Position numbers and translations under genes: made by a program. Positions 8,497-29,089 of a stretch of DNA of 29,089 bases are shown here, piece by piece. Numbering within the stretch: position 1 is the first letter of the stretch; the number at the start of each line of letters is the position of its first letter. Where the stretch lies: the IMG/VR virus record IMGVR_UViG_3300032257_000085, positions 1-29,089 of that record; one strand, written 5' to 3'. Origin of the DNA: a virus (taxonomy: Duplodnaviria; Caudoviricetes). The notes under the pieces were generated by a model that searched no databases, was not told where the DNA came from, and saw only the letters and a list, made by a program, of their open reading frames with translations.

Positions 8497-8622
8497 ATGG
8501 CTGAGAATAAACGCGAAACTTTAATACCCAGGGGTGAGCGAAAGAAACAAAAAGCCGCCGCCGAAAAATCAAAACCAAAATCGAAACCAGTAGAGGAAAG
8601 AGAAGATGCTGACAAGTCGTGA
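8497..8622 (+). CDS. 41-aa charged hypothetical protein (absent from ORF track)
   Basis: ATG 8497 to TGA 8622, MAENKRETLIPRGERKKQK...; fills the gap between terminator and tube genes. Confidence 0.5.
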   Translation: MAENKRETLIPRGERKKQKAAAEKSKPKSKPVEEREDADKS

Positions 8623-9538
8623 AGTAATCCTTTGCAAAGAGGAATCCACTTATAATACCGATTCAGCACCTACCGCTTCTGCTGACGCTATTTTAATATC
8701 TAATCCATCGTGGGCCAATGAAGGTTTACGAATGAATGAGCGGGATGTTGTTAAAAAGACACTCGGAAAGAAAAAGAGTATTTACGGTGGTTCATTAAAA
8801 ACCGTTACTTTTGATGTTGAAATAAAAGGTTCAGGTACAGCCGGTACAGCACCCGATTTAGGTGTATTACTGGAAATTTGTGGCATGACTGAAACGGTTG
8901 TTGCTTCTACCTCTGTTACTTATGCCCCCGAATCAGACCCAGCATCAATGAAATCAGGTACATTATGGTATTACCAGGACGGTTTAATTCATAAATTAAC
9001 AGGTTGTCGTGGTAATTTCAGTGCAAATCTGGAAACAGGTAATGTTGGTATGTTCTCGTTTACGATTACAGGCCATTCTGTTGCGCCGATTGATGGCGCG
9101 ATTGTGACACCTACTGTTGATGCAACAGACCCAGTTTCTATTAAAGGTACATCATTTACAATTGATTCGTATGCAGCAACTATCAACTCATTAGCGTTTG
9201 ATATGTCAAATACAGTGGCAATGCCGGCTGATATGAATGCTACTGACGGCTATGGTGAAATATTTGTAGCCCAGCGTGATATTAATGGTACTTTTGACCC
9301 TGAAATGGAACTGGTTGCTACCGAAGATTTTGATGGTAATTTCAGATCAGGCGCGGCAATGGCCTTAACTACTGGTGCGATTGGTGCAACGGCTGGAAAC
9401 ATCCTTACAGTGACTATGCCTGCTGTTTCATACCGTGATATTTCCCCAGGTGATCGTGATGGTATCAGAACCTATGAATTGGCTTATGGTGCGGCTGAAT
9501 CATCTGGTGATGACGGCGTGAGTATCGCTTTCACGTAA
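8606..9538 (+). CDS. major tail tube protein (non-contractile tail)
   Basis: 310 aa beginning MLTSREVILCKEESTYNTD; HKLTGCRGNF motif; precedes the chaperone and tape measure; no sheath gene. Confidence 0.85.
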   Translation: MLTSREVILCKEESTYNTDSAPTASADAILISNPSWANEGLRMNERDVVKKTLGKKKSIYGGSLKTVTFDVEIKGSGTAGTAPDLGVLLEICGMTETVVASTSVTYAPESDPASMKSGTLWYYQDGLIHKLTGCRGNFSANLETGNVGMFSFTITGHSVAPIDGAIVTPTVDATDPVSIKGTSFTIDSYAATINSLAFDMSNTVAMPADMNATDGYGEIFVAQRDINGTFDPEMELVATEDFDGNFRSGAAMALTTGAIGATAGNILTVTMPAVSYRDISPGDRDGIRTYELAYGAAESSGDDGVSIAFT

Positions 9539-16564: not shown

Positions 16565-16906
16565 ATGAATATATTAACATTAACAATTTTATATATCGTT
16601 ATCACAGCACAACTATTCAGCGCAACGTGGATAATCTATGTTGCAATAATGTACTGTAAAAATAATTGGGATGATTTACCGCTACCGGCAAAAGTTCTCG
16701 CATCAATGTGGTTGCCTGTAGGATTAATTCTTGATGTGATTTTAAATATATTAATGACAGTTTACTTTTTAGATTTCTTTATTCTCGATTGGACATTATC
16801 GAACAGGCTTAACAGAATCAGAGATACCAAAACAGGTTATCGATTGCGCCATGCTGATTACATTTGTGAAAACCTTTTAAACCCATTTGATAAAGGACAT
16901 TGCTAA
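16565..16906 (+). CDS. conserved-type phage membrane protein
   Basis: Hydrophobic N-terminal helices; DVILN...TLSNRL...IC..LLNPFDKGHC pattern seen next to tail-fibre genes. Confidence 0.55.
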   Translation: MNILTLTILYIVITAQLFSATWIIYVAIMYCKNNWDDLPLPAKVLASMWLPVGLILDVILNILMTVYFLDFFILDWTLSNRLNRIRDTKTGYRLRHADYICENLLNPFDKGHC

Positions 16907-17085
16907 TGGATAAATTCAATTTCATATTCAGAAAAAAATACAGCGCAACTCTAATCGGCATATTTTCAATACTGGTATTGTCATTTGCAGATTTATTAAC
17001 GCCTCATGCGGCTAACGCAATACTGGGTATTACTGTTGCCTTTGTCGGAATGCAAGGCTATGTAGACGGCAAACAGAATGATTAA
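16906..17085 (+). CDS. putative holin (2 TM)
   Basis: 59 aa from ATG 16906 (TAATG overlap); basic N-terminus and two hydrophobic segments; precedes the spanins. Confidence 0.6.
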   Translation: MDKFNFIFRKKYSATLIGIFSILVLSFADLLTPHAANAILGITVAFVGMQGYVDGKQND

Positions 17086-17485
17086 GTGGTTTGCAATACT
17101 GGGGGTGGTGTCTGCTGTAGGTGGCGCGGGTTACTGGGTAGCAACTGAACTGATTGAAAAAGGTAGATTAGAAGTTGCAAATGAAACGCAAACTGAAACT
17201 ATAAAGTCATTACAAGATGGAATGAATCATTATGTGAAAGCCATTCAGTTTATGAGTGATGACTTTATAAAGAGTGAGGCAAAAGCAAATGAACAAAAAA
17301 AGCGATTCAATCTTGATGGCATGGAAAAACTTATCAAGAACAATCCGGTTCGCGCCGCTGCTGTTGCTTACAGTAATACAGATGTCCTGTTTTCTGAAAT
17401 CGAAACCAGACGTAATAGTTTCCGCGATCGAAACAAAGCCGAAACTAAAATGCCAGATAAGCGCTTACCCGCCTACATTCCATAG
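17078..17485 (+). CDS. i-spanin (Rz-like)
   Basis: Single N-terminal TM followed by a helical periplasmic domain; overlapped by a lipoprotein ORF. Confidence 0.7.
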   Translation: MIKWFAILGVVSAVGGAGYWVATELIEKGRLEVANETQTETIKSLQDGMNHYVKAIQFMSDDFIKSEAKANEQKKRFNLDGMEKLIKNNPVRAAAVAYSNTDVLFSEIETRRNSFRDRNKAETKMPDKRLPAYIP

Positions 17486-17624
17486 ACCGAAGCCCGCTAT
17501 CATTCAGGGGCATATCTGTTTAACGACAGAAGATAATAAAAACTTCTGGAATAACTATATTGATGGACTTAAATACGAATCCCAGCTTGAGGACTGCATA
17601 CGCACGTTTGAAAATTACCAGTAA
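17316..17624 (+). CDS. o-spanin (Rz1-like lipoprotein)
   Basis: Overlaps the i-spanin in another frame; MAWKNLSRTIRFAPLLLLTVIQMS-C signal with lipobox-like Cys; Pro-rich segment. Confidence 0.65.
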   Translation: MAWKNLSRTIRFAPLLLLTVIQMSCFLKSKPDVIVSAIETKPKLKCQISAYPPTFHRPKPAIIQGHICLTTEDNKNFWNNYIDGLKYESQLEDCIRTFENYQ

Positions 17625-18238: not shown

Positions 18239-18856
18239 ATGAGTAAAACACACAGAGTAACACCAGCAAAAGTTAATTCAGATTCACAGGCCGATGAATT
18301 TTTTTCATTAACACCAACACAAGTATCAGCCGGTATTATTAAGGGCCTGCTTTTAAATGTAGGTGCTGACAATAAAAAGACATGGATTTTCAGGGCAAAA
18401 GTAAACAACATTGATTTTAATTCAAAGCTTGGCGATATAAGTGAAATGACGCTGAACGAAGCAGAAATAAAAGCTTTGGATATTCATAACGGCGCTGTCA
18501 CTCCATCAATAAATTCACCATGCACTAATAATCATGTTCAGCAGGTTTTAAATGATGAGTCATTAATACCAGATTCATATTTACAAATGATTGAATGGGG
18601 TAGCGAGAACTCAGGCAAGTTATCACACGCCGCTAAAAATGGTGAAATCAGAAGCATTAAAATATTACACACGGAAGGCCAGCGGCGCGGCAAAACATTT
18701 TTGAACAAAGAAGATGTTAAGGCCTTCTTTGAAGCAGAAAAAAACAACACCCCTAAAAATGAAACGAATGAAATAAACGAAAGCGCACAGCAACAACTGA
18801 ATCGAATTGAGCAAAAATTGGACGCTGTTTTAGATTCATTTGGCATTAAACTATAG
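18239..18856 (+). CDS. integrase arm-type DNA-binding domain plus Xis-like wHTH, no catalytic domain
   Basis: GLLLNV...KKTWIFRAK...KLG...MTLNEAEIKA (Arm-DNA-bind_3/DUF4102 pattern); AAKNGEIRSIKI...GKTFLNKEDVKAFF; no R-H-R-Y residues; only 205 aa. Confidence 0.6.
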   Translation: MSKTHRVTPAKVNSDSQADEFFSLTPTQVSAGIIKGLLLNVGADNKKTWIFRAKVNNIDFNSKLGDISEMTLNEAEIKALDIHNGAVTPSINSPCTNNHVQQVLNDESLIPDSYLQMIEWGSENSGKLSHAAKNGEIRSIKILHTEGQRRGKTFLNKEDVKAFFEAEKNNTPKNETNEINESAQQQLNRIEQKLDAVLDSFGIKL

Positions 18857-22753: not shown

Positions 22754-22787
22754 TGGCGGGGCGTTTTGTAGTAGGGCGACCCCGCCA
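22754..22787 (+). terminator. GC-rich stem-loop
   Basis: TGGCGGGG-CGTTTT...AGGGCG-A-CCCCGCCA; no clear U-tract on the + strand. Confidence 0.4.
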
Positions 22788-22804: not shown

Positions 22805-23278
22805 ATGAACAGAAGAAACTTTATAAAATCAGTAGCTGCATTAATGGCGGGGCCAGTAGTGGCAAAAGCTAATTTATCGGAAGGGAGTCAAAAATTAAGC
22901 TTAGAGCCGGATCCGGTATTTTCTTTTAAAGGAAAAGAAGTCGAGCCTGAAACACGGCTTGAAAGCCATGAAAATATAGGCGGTATTTATAAAGGTAATA
23001 TTCTTGTTGCTGCCTTTAAAGATTGGAGGCTAACACATAGCCATAACGGTAATATCGTTTCATGGGAAATCGATGCCGATTTATATTTAGATTATATGGG
23101 GCTTAATTTATTTCCAAATGAAACATATCAAGTTAGGCTTTTTAATGGTGATATAGAGCGAACAGGAAGCGTTGTTTTATGGCAAGTATTTTATGAAATC
23201 GCGTGTACGGGTCATAAACAGTGTAGTTTAGAATTAAAAGGCATCGACGAATTAATGCAAACAATGAATGAAGGGTAG
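22805..23278 (+). CDS. Tat-signal protein 1; mature part tail-tube-like
   Basis: MNRRNFIK twin-arginine motif, short h-region, VAKA cleavage site. Confidence 0.6.
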   Translation: MNRRNFIKSVAALMAGPVVAKANLSEGSQKLSLEPDPVFSFKGKEVEPETRLESHENIGGIYKGNILVAAFKDWRLTHSHNGNIVSWEIDADLYLDYMGLNLFPNETYQVRLFNGDIERTGSVVLWQVFYEIACTGHKQCSLELKGIDELMQTMNEG

Positions 23279-24128: not shown

Positions 24129-24367
24129 CACCAGAACAGGAAAAAAGGTTATTAGAGTTTAAGCCGTTTGATGCCTGGAACAATAATTGCTCTTTAACAA
24201 ACGCCGATTTTAAAGAATTATTATTTAAATATATTAAATTTGTTGGTGAAGCTGAGGGTGTTGATTATATTTGTGGTCATATTGACTTACGAGAGCATAC
24301 AGATACAAAATTTACTGATCAGGAATGGGAAGTATTAGTGAAATTATCGAAGAGGGCAAGAAAATGA
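24125..24367 (+). CDS. hypothetical protein
   Basis: 80 aa, translationally coupled on both sides. Confidence 0.55.
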   Translation: MTPEQEKRLLEFKPFDAWNNNCSLTNADFKELLFKYIKFVGEAEGVDYICGHIDLREHTDTKFTDQEWEVLVKLSKRARK

Positions 24368-24654
24368 ACAGAAGATCATTTCTAAAAAGAACATTGGCTG
24401 CGGCGGGTGTTATTGCGATGCCTGGATCGTTAAAGGCAAAGCCTGAAACGGTTTACGAAAAAACAACTGTTGAAAGCAAGTGGAAACGAGAACCAAAATT
24501 GATTTATGAATCTACACCAATATCACCAGACGAATCTAACTTTGGCGCGATATGGGTAGCAGAAAAAGGCGAGACATTTGTCAGAAAAGGTGATAAGTGG
24601 GTATCAACAACATGGCCTGAAATAAATAAAAACATTGTTCCACGTGAAACATAA
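24364..24654 (+). CDS. Tat-signal protein 2
   Basis: ATG 24364 (ATGA overlap); MNRRSFLKRTLAAAGVIAMPGSLKA. Confidence 0.65.
   Translation: MNRRSFLKRTLAAAGVIAMPGSLKAKPETVYEKTTVESKWKREPKLIYESTPISPDESNFGAIWVAEKGETFVRKGDKWVSTTWPEINKNIVPRET
24636..24651. promoter_or_regulatory. parS: chromosomal-type parS centromere site
   Basis: TGTTCCACGTGAAACA, an exact fit to the TGTTNCACGTGAAACA parS consensus. Confidence 0.8.
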
Positions 24655-25021: not shown

Positions 25022-25363
25022 ATGAAATTAGGCAAAAAGCAAGAGTTGTTCATGCGTCTATTACCCAGGCTGATTGATAAGGCCCATAGTCTGGGCTTTG
25101 AAATAAGGGGGGGTGATCTATACCGTGACCCGAGTTTACATGGCGAATTTGGTAAAAAGGTTGGTTACGGGTCCAAAAATTCAAATCATAAATTAAAATT
25201 AGCGGTTGACCTCAATCTAATGAAGAATGGCAGGCTTGTTACAAGCACAAAAGGCCACGAAGAATTGGGTGAATGGTGGGAGCAGCAGCATGAATTATGT
25301 CGATGGGGCGGGCGCTTCAAAGACGGTAATCATTACTCTTTAGAGCATTGGGGTACGGCGTGA
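25022..25363 (+). CDS. endolysin, peptidase M15 family (L-Ala-D-Glu peptidase-like)
   Basis: SNHKLKLAVD (SxH...AxD Zn ligands) and WGGRFKDGNHYS. Confidence 0.88.
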   Translation: MKLGKKQELFMRLLPRLIDKAHSLGFEIRGGDLYRDPSLHGEFGKKVGYGSKNSNHKLKLAVDLNLMKNGRLVTSTKGHEELGEWWEQQHELCRWGGRFKDGNHYSLEHWGTA

Positions 25364-25785
25364 TGGCTAATCAACAGCTAATACATAAGGCTATCTGGAC
25401 TATTACGCTTACTTTATTTTTAGGAATTGTGAGTACGGCTGGAAGCGTTATATGGTCAACAAACGCGACTAATGAACAGATAAAGAATAATGTTGCTTAC
25501 AGCAAAGAAAATCGAACATTAATTAAGCAGAACCAACATGCAATTGCCTTAATTCATCAAAACGGGGCAACAATGATAGAGCATTTGGCTAAAATATCAG
25601 TTTCAACACAATATATCGAAAAATCTGGTGATGACAGAAATAAACTATTAAAGAAAGTAATTACAAGAGCTGATAAAACAGCTTTAGAGCAAGCCAGAAG
25701 AACGCGTGATGTCAACGCAATAAGGCCAGCTATTAATCGGTTAATAGATCATATAAATACAGATCAGGCACACGGGAAACAATAG
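25363..25785 (+). CDS. single-TM coiled-coil protein, possible holin/antiholin
   Basis: TGATG coupling to the endolysin; N-terminal TM AIWTITLTLFLGIVSTAGSVIW. Confidence 0.5.
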   Translation: MANQQLIHKAIWTITLTLFLGIVSTAGSVIWSTNATNEQIKNNVAYSKENRTLIKQNQHAIALIHQNGATMIEHLAKISVSTQYIEKSGDDRNKLLKKVITRADKTALEQARRTRDVNAIRPAINRLIDHINTDQAHGKQ

Positions 25786-25796
25786 GTATTATTTAA

Positions 25797-28283
25797 GTGA
25801 CTGTAGACGTACAAAAATATTCTGATCCTGATGTAGTCGGTGGTAATGCTGACGGGTCGAGCTGGGCTAATGCGTATGGTGGTATCGACGCGGCATTGAC
25901 TGCAGAACACGCTAATGGTCAGGATTACACAAACATTAACGAAGCAACAATATCCAATATTACTGCCTTCACTACTGCAAACCAGACATTAACATTTTCG
26001 CCATCCGGAGCTACAGCCAGATTTATATCTCAAGTAAGTACAACGCTTCAATATGAGGTATTAACTGGTACACCAACAACAGCAGATTCATTGACAGGTG
26101 CTACTGAAGGCAGTGCCGATGTAGATACAATTGATGACACGAGTGGCGGTGCCGTCACGATAAAGTCACGTAATAGTGACACAACGGGCATCTCTCATTC
26201 ATCAACTACCGTCACTGATGCCACTAATAAACTGATTATTGAAGGTGACTTCACAGGCGCTAAGCCTGACAGCACAAAAGCAGAAATCAATGTCGGAAAT
26301 GCCACAGCGGTCACGCTGAATACTGAATATGTACTGTTTAAGAACATACAGATTTTATGGGCACCCACCAGTAACTCAAGAAGAGGTATCACCTGGTCAG
26401 GAACCGGGCTACTGGAAACAGATACAGTAATCTTGAAATGCGCAGCGACTGGCGGCAATTACATTAGGGGTATTGTTCCAAGTGGCAATGTGTACCTGAA
26501 AAATACATTGTTACTAGATATCAAGCGCGGCTCTAATGATTACATCGGTGTTTACCAGGGCGGTGCAAGAACCTTAAGAGTCTATAACTGCGCGCTGGAT
26601 AATTGCTATCGTGGTGTAACTAATGACTCTAGTGTTGATGCTGAAGTCGTTAATACAGCAATGAATTGTAATATTCTAACAGCAGGAACAGGTACAACCA
26701 ATTTAACTAATTGCGCCTCAACAGCAGGAACAGGCACAAACGCGGTTACTATTTCAGATTGGAATGAACCTGATGTATTTGATAATCGTTTCTTAGATGA
26801 TTTTGATTTAGGGTGGAACTCTGTACTATTAAATACAGGCGTTGGAAGCAGTACGGATTCAGATGTTCCGGCAACAGATATTTATGGTAACACCAGAACA
26901 GCGGCAACAACTACTGATATAGGCGTTCATTACGATTCAGCGCAACACCCAACAGCTACCGACCCACGTATAGAATACGCCTTTAATGAAACAAGCGGGC
27001 TAGTTTGTGCTTCTAATTATAATACTAGATTGAATGGGGTGATCGGTGAAGAGATAACGGTAACAGACACCGGAGCTGCGATTACAGAATATCAAGGGTA
27101 TACAACTGATGGCACAAGTCATTATGTTTCACTGGGCAGTGGTGGTGGTACATTAACAAAATATAATTCTGATTATTCAACAGCCACAGCGACAAACACG
27201 GCTGTTTTTGCTGATCTTTCAGGCAGTCCTAATACGCTTGGCGGCATGAGATATTACAACAACTTGATTTATGTCAGCGCAGAGGTTGGTTCGTGTACGT
27301 CTTATCAGCCTGTATCTGTTGCCATTTATAATACATCGCTTGTATTTCAAGATGAGATTGATATGTCAAACGAAGAGTTTGAAATATCATGCTGTACAGT
27401 GAATGAAGATGATGGTTATGTCTATGCTATGGGTTATTGTTTTGGTAACCGAGTGTGGGTTTATGATCTTGCAACACCTTATGCGTTTGTAGGAACCATT
27501 GATCTGGATGCCAGAGTACATGCAAACGGCATATTTTATGACACAACAACGGCAACTATTTATGTGGCATGTAAAAATGATAGTGCTACGGCTGGAGCAG
27601 AAAGAATACTTAATTTTGATTTAAGTGGTAACTTAATTGGTAGTTGGAATGCACCTACAATTGCAGAAATGGAAGATATTGAAATTGCTGGTGGTGATTT
27701 CAGATATAACGATTATCCGACCCCACACATTACGACTGCGACTTACCCAACAGCACCAACGCGAACAGAGGGTAGTATTCATTTAGATAAAACTTATTAC
27801 ATTGATATATTCGATGAAATAAGTGATGAAGCTACTTTTATTATTGGTCTAAAAGCAACAACTTTTTTTGCCGATAATACCTTTTTTGATTCACACATAG
27901 GGGATACTGAATGGTTTGGTAGTATCGATGCAAGCGGCGTATTGAGTTTCGTTATTGATGGCGCAAGCCCTGTCACTCATACATTACCCAGCGCGACAAC
28001 AGAATATAAAATTGCTATTACAATCGGCGGCAGTGGTGCAACTCGAACAGTTAAGCTTTATGTTGATGACACGCTGGAAGATACACAAACTCAGGATTGG
28101 GTAGCACCTCCAGCAGAATGGTATTCATTAGGAGCTGGCAATAGCAATAACACTAAGAGTGATTGTGAGTTATTTTATTTCGCTGCCTTTGATTATGAAC
28201 TGAGCAGCACCGAAGTTTCAGACTACACGCCGCCAGCATACCCAACCAGTGGTATACTACCCTTAATGATGGCTTACACTTAG
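25797..28283 (+). CDS. large Thr-rich virion appendage / receptor-binding-like protein (beta-helix + beta-propeller + LamG-like)
   Basis: DGSSWANAY start motif, beta-helix-like NC/NT repeats, TDIYGNTR...DIG motif, propeller-like blades, C-terminal LYVDD...SLGA...CEL LamG-like motifs. Confidence 0.65.
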   Translation: MTVDVQKYSDPDVVGGNADGSSWANAYGGIDAALTAEHANGQDYTNINEATISNITAFTTANQTLTFSPSGATARFISQVSTTLQYEVLTGTPTTADSLTGATEGSADVDTIDDTSGGAVTIKSRNSDTTGISHSSTTVTDATNKLIIEGDFTGAKPDSTKAEINVGNATAVTLNTEYVLFKNIQILWAPTSNSRRGITWSGTGLLETDTVILKCAATGGNYIRGIVPSGNVYLKNTLLLDIKRGSNDYIGVYQGGARTLRVYNCALDNCYRGVTNDSSVDAEVVNTAMNCNILTAGTGTTNLTNCASTAGTGTNAVTISDWNEPDVFDNRFLDDFDLGWNSVLLNTGVGSSTDSDVPATDIYGNTRTAATTTDIGVHYDSAQHPTATDPRIEYAFNETSGLVCASNYNTRLNGVIGEEITVTDTGAAITEYQGYTTDGTSHYVSLGSGGGTLTKYNSDYSTATATNTAVFADLSGSPNTLGGMRYYNNLIYVSAEVGSCTSYQPVSVAIYNTSLVFQDEIDMSNEEFEISCCTVNEDDGYVYAMGYCFGNRVWVYDLATPYAFVGTIDLDARVHANGIFYDTTTATIYVACKNDSATAGAERILNFDLSGNLIGSWNAPTIAEMEDIEIAGGDFRYNDYPTPHITTATYPTAPTRTEGSIHLDKTYYIDIFDEISDEATFIIGLKATTFFADNTFFDSHIGDTEWFGSIDASGVLSFVIDGASPVTHTLPSATTEYKIAITIGGSGATRTVKLYVDDTLEDTQTQDWVAPPAEWYSLGAGNSNNTKSDCELFYFAAFDYELSSTEVSDYTPPAYPTSGILPLMMAYT

Positions 28284-28293
28284 AGATTAGCTT

Positions 28294-29089
28294 ATGCACA
28301 ATTACCTAATTACAAAAGGCACAACTGACGTAAGCGTTGAATTACGAATAGTTGATTCGACAGATGGTACGCCTGAAACTGGTGTTGTCTGGAACACGGC
28401 TGGTATTGATTTACAGTACAGAAGAGATGGCGCGGCATCAACAGCGATTACAGAGGCGACATTAGCAGCACTGACAACTGCGCATACAGATGGCGGCTTT
28501 CTTCATATTGGAAATGGCGTTTACAGATTCGATTTACCGGATGCAGCTTGCGCTAGTGGTGTTGATAAAGTGATTGTTCATGGCACTGTTACAGGTATGG
28601 TTGTTATTGGTTGTGTTATTCAGTTGACTGATGTTGATATATTCGATGGTGTTAGAGCCGGTATGACCGCTTTACCGAATGCTGCTGCTGATGCAGCGGG
28701 TGGGTTGCCTATTTCAGATGCGGGGGGTCTTGATCTCGATGGTATGAATACCAACATCAATGATATTGAAACAGATACAAATGAGCTTCAAGGTGATTGG
28801 GCTAATGGTGGCAGGCTTGATTTAATTTTAGATTCAAGAATGGCTGAGGCGAGTATTAATACAACGGCTGGGGCGGTTGATAATGTTACTTTAGTTGCCA
28901 CTACCACAACCAATACGGATATGAGGGGTACAGATTCAGCAGCAACAGCCGCAGCATTAGCAACAGCGCAAACAGACCTTGATACGATTACAGGTACTAA
29001 TGGTGTTCTAATTGACGATACAGAGGCAGCGGCCTTAGTTGATGATGTGTGGGATGAGGTTCTAACAGGTGGAGCTCATAATGTCACTA
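28294..29089 (+). CDS. putative virion fibre/structural protein, truncated by the window end (absent from ORF track)
   Basis: Open from ATG 28294 to the end: MHNYLITKGTTDVSVELRIVDSTDGTPETG...GNGVYRFDLPDAA...LVDDVWDEVL; Ala/Thr/Asp-rich. Confidence 0.7.
   Translation, partial: MHNYLITKGTTDVSVELRIVDSTDGTPETGVVWNTAGIDLQYRRDGAASTAITEATLAALTTAHTDGGFLHIGNGVYRFDLPDAACASGVDKVIVHGTVTGMVVIGCVIQLTDVDIFDGVRAGMTALPNAAADAAGGLPISDAGGLDLDGMNTNINDIETDTNELQGDWANGGRLDLILDSRMAEASINTTAGAVDNVTLVATTTTNTDMRGTDSAATAAALATAQTDLDTITGTNGVLIDDTEAAALVDDVWDEVLTGGAHNVT

Follow-up and report, generated by a model that had tools for sequence, protein, structure and literature searches.

A Phage Protein with a Twin-Arginine-Type Leader and a Predicted Tail-Tube-Like Barrel, Possibly a Decoy for Tube Sensors

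The closest described counterparts of the protein reported here are tail-tube proteins, the proteins that sense or block them, and twin-arginine (Tat) signal peptides. When the loop between strands beta2 and beta3 of the tail-tube protein is deleted, the tubes of T5 and SPP1 no longer grow, and YSD1 yields rings (PMC8718954). The tube sensor DSR2 is activated by tube monomers only, ring formation burying the binding surface, and an engineered loop-less tube protein (tube-delta-loop1) binds DSR2 stably and activates it poorly, i.e., loop loss uncouples binding from activation (PMC10981675). Avs sensors recognise the fold of tube, capsid and portal even where the phages share little sequence (reviewed in PMC13728456). 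Sensing that relies on the fold of tubes, capsids and portals is hard for phages to escape by mutation. Tail assembly is also the target of the accessory phage or satellite genes Tab (PMC10884400) and Tai (PMC11364771). The Tat pathway transports proteins in the folded state, and partners bound to them can be taken along (PMC9251779, PMC13673990); we found no phage-encoded Tat substrate in the available text of a 2026 Tat review (PMC13673990).

We describe a 157 amino acid phage protein that combines a Tat-type leader with a predicted tube-like barrel. It resembles tail tubes (PF06199 Phage_tail_2; R4C, 8gtb; SPP1 gp17.1, 6yeg; lambda gpV N-domain) and Hcp in its predicted barrel (93-100 of 101 residues, Z 5.9-7.2), in a weak colinear profile match and in acidic composition. 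Unlike tail tubes, it has a leader and a linker, its loop of 12 residues lacks the usual motif, its model shows no flanking helix, no Pfam or PHROG tube model matches it, and it lies outside the tail operon. As the loop and the gene position both depart from those of tail tubes, we do not file it as a tail tube protein. It would be like DSAD1 or tube-delta-loop1 in being a phage protein that binds a tube sensor without triggering it; for DSAD1 the action is allosteric and the available text describes no export leader (PMC10981675), and that our protein might bind DSR2 is something we infer. Tab and Tai differ from it in that they are defences of prophages or satellites and come with counter-defence genes; the available text of these reports mentions neither a tube fold nor a Tat leader (PMC10884400, PMC11364771), and no PHROG or Pfam link to our protein was found. 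PilZ domains (VCA0042, YcgR, BcsA) share the barrel topology with tied Z-scores, while our family is without the c-di-GMP motifs and the structural overlap is shorter. The parts are thus known, and the design, a Tat leader joined to a tube-like barrel, is what is new. In the full texts searched, which include few subscription papers and no supplements, we found no description of this design, of phage use of Tat, or of tube-related exclusion by such a protein.

Genomic setting and the twin-arginine leader

The window, i.e., the whole stretch of DNA that was analysed (29,089 nucleotides), corresponds to a virus record of 29 kb that is 75% complete and has lambda-like head genes; its closest sequencing runs are microbial-mat metagenomes, two of which may be its source. 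The features discussed below are as follows.

22805..23278, +: whole gene, 157 amino acids, with Tat-type leader, linker and tube-like barrel (open reading frame; same layout in three full-length homologues)
22805..22870, +: twin-arginine-type leader, residues 1-22, with RRxFxK, a 12-residue h-region, basic K21 and AKA (Pfam TAT_signal, E 0.005; 59-68% identity in 3/3 homologues)
22871..22972, +: poorly conserved linker, residues 23-56 (3-12% identity to homologues)
22973..23239, +: predicted six-stranded tail-tube/Hcp-like barrel, residues 57-145 (AF2 model, VIA alignment, hhalign to tube family)
23027..23062, +: shortened beta2-beta3 loop, residues 75-86, 12 residues against 27 in 49/49 tubes (anchors from the hhalign alignment)
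8606..9538, +: likely own major tail (tube) protein, 310 amino acids (PHROG 290 tail protein, E 2e-15)
24364..24654, +: second twin-arginine-leader open reading frame, 96 amino acids, in the same gene run (TIGR01409, 18.9 bits, above the 16.7 cut-off)

The gene order is ssb, a small PHROG 13068 gene, the Tat-leader gene and a Ref-like nuclease gene whose start is overlapped by the 3' end of our open reading frame (ORF); RusA-like and endolysin genes lie downstream. An initial annotation had placed the gene in an accessory region and not in the tail operon, which these neighbours confirm, the tube position about 13 kb away being held by another gene. That gene is likely the tube gene, judging from its position before chaperone-like and tape-measure-like genes. 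Our protein has no similarity to its 310 amino acid product or to the corresponding tube family, and the barrel has none to any other of the 39 ORFs of the window (a count that includes its own). The idea that the gene is a copy of the phage's own tube was thus rejected for this genome.

An identical protein is encoded in a second assembly (L008, among the matches listed and possibly of the same source), and in two further runs the contigs that cover parts of the gene agree with it at every position. Public gene calls (P0001) begin at Met14, so that the RR motif is lost; this start may partly explain why the leader was overlooked. Promoter and terminator counts in the region equal the shuffled background, and no RNA holder is listed for the gene region. 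Immediately 5' of the gene lies a G+C-rich 7-bp inverted repeat with an 18-nucleotide loop (22755-22786, +), which could be a regulatory hairpin.

The twin-arginine signal noted at first, NRRNFIK, is present as residues 2-8. This motif is followed by 12 uncharged residues (S9-A20, mean Kyte-Doolittle 1.89). The AKA proposed as a cleavage site is present in this protein (A20-K21-A22) and does not extend to two homologues, P0002 and P0003, in which the same position reads AKL and AKI; an AxA site for signal peptidase I is optional in Tat substrates. Pfam TAT_signal (PF10518) matches residues 1-20 with 17.1 bits, below its cut-off of 22.7, and TIGR01409 is not listed for the protein and is above its cut-off in one of the three homologues (P0005). 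The RR-x-F-L/I-K motif stands at the n/h boundary in all four members (N-RR-N-F-I-K here); the three homologues begin MNRRxFLK, and all have a lysine at position 21. Like described signal peptides (PF10518, TIGR01409), including those used in hitchhiker export, the leader has RRxFxK at the n/h boundary, an h-region and a basic c-region residue; it differs in being very short, in scoring below curated cut-offs and in heading a phage protein. Had the signal been poorly conserved, this would have spoken against the annotation. The leader is in fact far more conserved than either the linker or the barrel (27-29% identity in the three homologues), which indicates that it is under selection. Judged from its sequence, the 157 amino acid protein is a candidate Tat substrate.

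Is this leader peculiar to one family? Its exact pattern occurs in 56 viral stretches, corresponding to 46 distinct ORFs and 23 unrelated families, only one of which is the present family. RR is found in 55 of the 56; the KK version was found once, with a pattern narrower in codons. A domain scan covered 29 leader-bearing proteins (24 from 22 of the 23 families and five from other loci). It returned one strong virion match (Gp23), two weak ones (terminase, tail-fibre) and a polysaccharide deacetylase, while the rest had no match or fell in families of unknown function. The strong match is a stand-alone capsid piece (E 9.5e-12): an 84 amino acid ORF (L138:699-950, -) with a Tat leader and a 52-residue piece of the T4-type major capsid protein Gp23, in a jumbo phage of 527 kb (G006) that has a separate full Gp23. 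The same phage encodes a TatA-family gene (L163:1477-1692, -; Pfam E 2e-12, above cut-off); no TatA-family gene was found in our 75%-complete record or in G005. In another phage (G008), a Tat leader is followed by two tandem short pieces (L114:901-1137, +) that weakly resemble the first helix of the P22-type coat protein encoded by the same phage (E 0.008 and 0.77 in a comparison within its genome) and have no match in cultured phages. A capsid resemblance seen by eye in L120 and L118 was unconfirmed in the cultured-phage comparison. A complete 38-kb phage (G009) carries two adjacent Tat-leader ORFs just upstream of its terminase genes (L004:10001-10926, +); one of the two leaders matches ours over 23 residues with 70% identity and heads an unrelated domain. 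There are also three larger Tat-leader families (L104-L158; 13, 6 and 6 distinct ORFs of 150-316+ amino acids), whose scanned representatives gave no informative Pfam or PHROG match, and the mature part of the second Tat-leader ORF of our gene run likewise gave no informative match.

Homologues, the barrel and its loop

A search of 1.84 billion representatives returned five matches: the protein itself, P0002, P0003, P0005 and a repeat protein (P0004) that was dropped as spurious, so that three of the four non-self matches were kept. The three remote homologues are full length, 28-30% identical to our protein and have the same layout of leader and barrel. Matches that cover the leader alone (L003, L004, L005-L007, L009, L010) were not counted as homologues. 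Further profile searches of a protein index restricted by length gave no new family member, and a motif scan gave P0003's contig, one chance match and nothing else. P0003, the sole homologue with a readable locus, belongs to a four-gene opposite-strand insert in the head operon of a different phage (L002:9102-10483, +; the insert ends in P0003, and its gene roles were assigned by eye). The location of the family gene therefore varies and is non-structural in both readable cases. In the 62%-complete record of a close relative, with a tail protein 91% identical, no copy of the gene is seen, nor is there one in a complete phage that has the 130 amino acid tube type. The gene looks optional.

The initial annotation had noted that the mature region resembles a tail-tube fold. 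AF2 with the four-row alignment gives, for residues 52-152, a model of six strands and no helix (pLDDT 72.8); a single-sequence model (pLDDT 36) was not used. The alpha-helix that flanks the barrel of tubes is absent at that place in the model, where the local pLDDT is about 61. A homotrimer prediction scored 0.02 (“no answer”) and weighs neither way. Nothing reached an E-value of 0.001 in Foldseek; tail tubes and hubs are among the top viral rows, and the PDB list is headed by a PilZ protein, Hcp5 and tail hubs. VIA-align superposes the model on the R4C tube (8gtb; Z 7.2, 98 of 101 residues) and the SPP1 tube (6yeg; Z 7.0, 100 of 101) with rmsd 3.4-3.5, on Hcp (Z 7.0-7.8), on VgrG1 (Z 8.1), and on the DSR2-bound tube chain 8wfn_D (Z 6.5, 89 residues). 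PilZ domains reach Z 7.6-8.2 over 76-88 residues. Since a Z below 8 may reflect merely a common arrangement, structure alone cannot separate a tube from a PilZ barrel. The proposed fold thus stands as far as the end-to-end alignment with tubes and Hcp goes, and it is not unique, PilZ being tied on Z.

The barrel might accordingly be a generic split barrel of the PilZ kind with another ligand, its tube resemblance being a shared superfold. PilZ domains give the top Z-scores (7.8-8.2), the lower rmsd (2.4-3.5 A) and the top two Foldseek PDB rows, and Pfam and PHROG tube models match none of the four members. On the other side, the PilZ rows span 71-90 residues while the best tube rows span 98-101 of 101. 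The PilZ motif RxxxR occurs in none of the four members, and D/NxSxxG is absent from our protein and unaligned in the two members that have one. In hhalign, the family profile matches the 130 amino acid tube family colinearly over 91 columns (probability 10.7, E 0.0029), and this match outscores all 400 shuffled profiles and the reversed profile, in a control set made up solely of 200 column shuffles, 200 block shuffles and one reversal. The tube profile consists of 49 sequences of the 80 loci returned, and its family was chosen as the tube of P0003's phage; the best match in it is 18% identical. In the Atlas, the P0003 model meets the naming bar for Phage_tail_2, and the rows of our protein are tube-like and below the bar. 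Searching PDB, cultured phages, PHROG and Pfam by sequence was uninformative for the barrel; matches to T7 gp1.2 (E 0.3-9) were treated as chance. The colinear profile match, the Atlas name of P0003 and the missing PilZ motifs favour a tube origin, and we predict from these models that the barrel derives from a tail-tube protein. Across the four divergent copies it retains 10 invariant columns and a foldable core, and it is acidic in all four (13 D+E vs. 7-9 K+R).

The long polymerisation loop had been noted as apparently lacking. Counted between matched aromatic anchors of the profile alignment, the beta2-beta3 loop is indeed short in our protein and in P0005 (14 residues), and is near full length in P0002 (23) and P0003 (26), so that the shortening does not hold family-wide. 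The loop motif [DE][TS]xxGD is found in 38 of the 49 tubes and in none of the four family members. The family offers natural short-loop and long-loop variants.

A decoy for tube sensors and the alternatives

What might a tube-like barrel behind a Tat leader do? We rank first, with a probability of about 0.38, a decoy that binds host tube sensors and holds them at, or pulls them towards, the Tat machinery. This reading fits the evidence somewhat better than either function first proposed, superinfection exclusion or the poisoning of competitor tail assembly. The gene would be expressed alongside the neighbouring replication and recombination genes, before the real tube accumulates. Its product would fold in the cytoplasm, as Tat substrates do, and would bind, but not activate, a sensor of the DSR2 or Avs type that reads folds; the complex might then be removed, either by being tethered at TatBC or through hitchhiker export where the partner is small.

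The short-loop anatomy supports the decoy, since it matches that of the DSR2 uncoupling mutant, and because Avs sensors read by fold, a decoy need not match the phage's own tube in sequence. The other leader-bearing proteins also bear on it. We know of no periplasmic counterpart of the capsid pieces during infection; their leaders therefore indicate a cytoplasmic partner for the class. Several points weigh against the decoy. The loops of P0002 and P0003 are near the 27 residues of real tubes, PilZ barrels tie or lead on Z with no Foldseek match at the threshold used, and confirmed virion matches among the 29 leader proteins are few. DSR2 is a tetramer, probably too large to pass Tat, and the size of known sensors is thus a difficulty for export. 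Efficient export would also leave the decoy in the cytoplasm for a shorter time, and a sensor that reads folds might fire rather than be blocked. Furthermore, the loop-less YSD1 tube forms rings (PMC8718954), while DSR2 needs monomers (PMC10981675).

It is tempting to extend the decoy to the class as a whole, and we consider the extension rather doubtful: phages may keep a modular kit of Tat-tagged mimics of the parts most often sensed (tube, capsid, terminase), which would fold in the cytoplasm, clamp sensors without firing them and have them parked or expelled via the host's export machinery. The present gene would be the tube member of such a kit and would have lost the activating loop in evolution, in parallel to the engineered mutant of the DSR2 work. 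If true, such export-tagged mimics of structural proteins would amount to a new counter-measure, or to a new form of phage-phage sabotage, that uses the Tat pathway. This member is convenient for study, with a domain of 100 residues and a loop change parallel to the published DSR2 experiment (PMC10981675).

First among the alternatives, and in our view unlikely, is a chain terminator: a loop-less subunit would join the tube of a rival phage and halt ring stacking, and the leader would drag the complex to the membrane or out. The loop deletions in T5, SPP1 and YSD1 (PMC8718954) and the existence of the tail-assembly blockers Tab and Tai speak for it. The barrel resembles 130 amino acid single-domain tubes and not the phage's own 310 amino acid protein, so the phage's own tail would be spared; P0003, however, comes from a phage that itself has a tube of the 130 amino acid type. 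An identity of 18% to the best tube-family match is low for co-polymerisation, and the loop is almost intact in two of the four members. Moreover, Tab and Tai are prophage or satellite defences (PMC10884400, PMC11364771), and no tyrosine integrase was found in the three incomplete records examined, including our 75%-complete one.

Ranked next, and improbable as well, is superinfection exclusion or sensing in the periplasm, where an exported and cleaved protein, perhaps as a ring, would intercept the incoming tube tip or tape measure. In its favour are the leader, in which RR, h-region, basic c-region residue and AxA are all present in our protein, and the acidic barrel, tube lumens being acidic too (PMC8718954); Tat also transports folded complexes (PMC9251779). 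AxA is not at this position in two of the three homologues, however, and the same leader on capsid pieces is left unexplained, which weakens this reading. Our gene overlaps its neighbour and shares its orientation with the adjoining ssb and nuclease genes, an arrangement that speaks more for lytic than for lysogen expression.

Still less probable is that the leader is the working part, as a membrane tether or as a jam or modulator of the host Tat system, with the fused domain as interchangeable baggage from phage genes. One leader type does head 23 unrelated mature families and exceeds the domain in conservation, and the gene is rare, with no copy found in the incomplete record of the close relative. 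Against this, the barrel kept its identity, its invariant columns and its foldable core while the linker decayed, and the pairing of leader and barrel persists across different gene settings. The non-tube barrel comes last and is very improbable in view of the missing PilZ motifs, the shorter PilZ overlap, the profile match and the Atlas name of P0003.

Other features of the window

After the tail genes lie ORFs that by eye are holin- and spanin-like (16565-17624), and an M15-peptidase endolysin is encoded 8 kb from them (25022-25785); the lysis-like genes thus appear split. A 205 amino acid ORF (18239-18856, +) has a weak match to an integrase Arm DNA-binding domain (Pfam E 1e-4) and is without the catalytic integrase domain. 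The endolysin gene is followed by large low-complexity ORFs (828, 658 and 271 amino acids; 25797-29089 of the window and L008:12993-18496), which lie outside the main tail operon and are probably structural.
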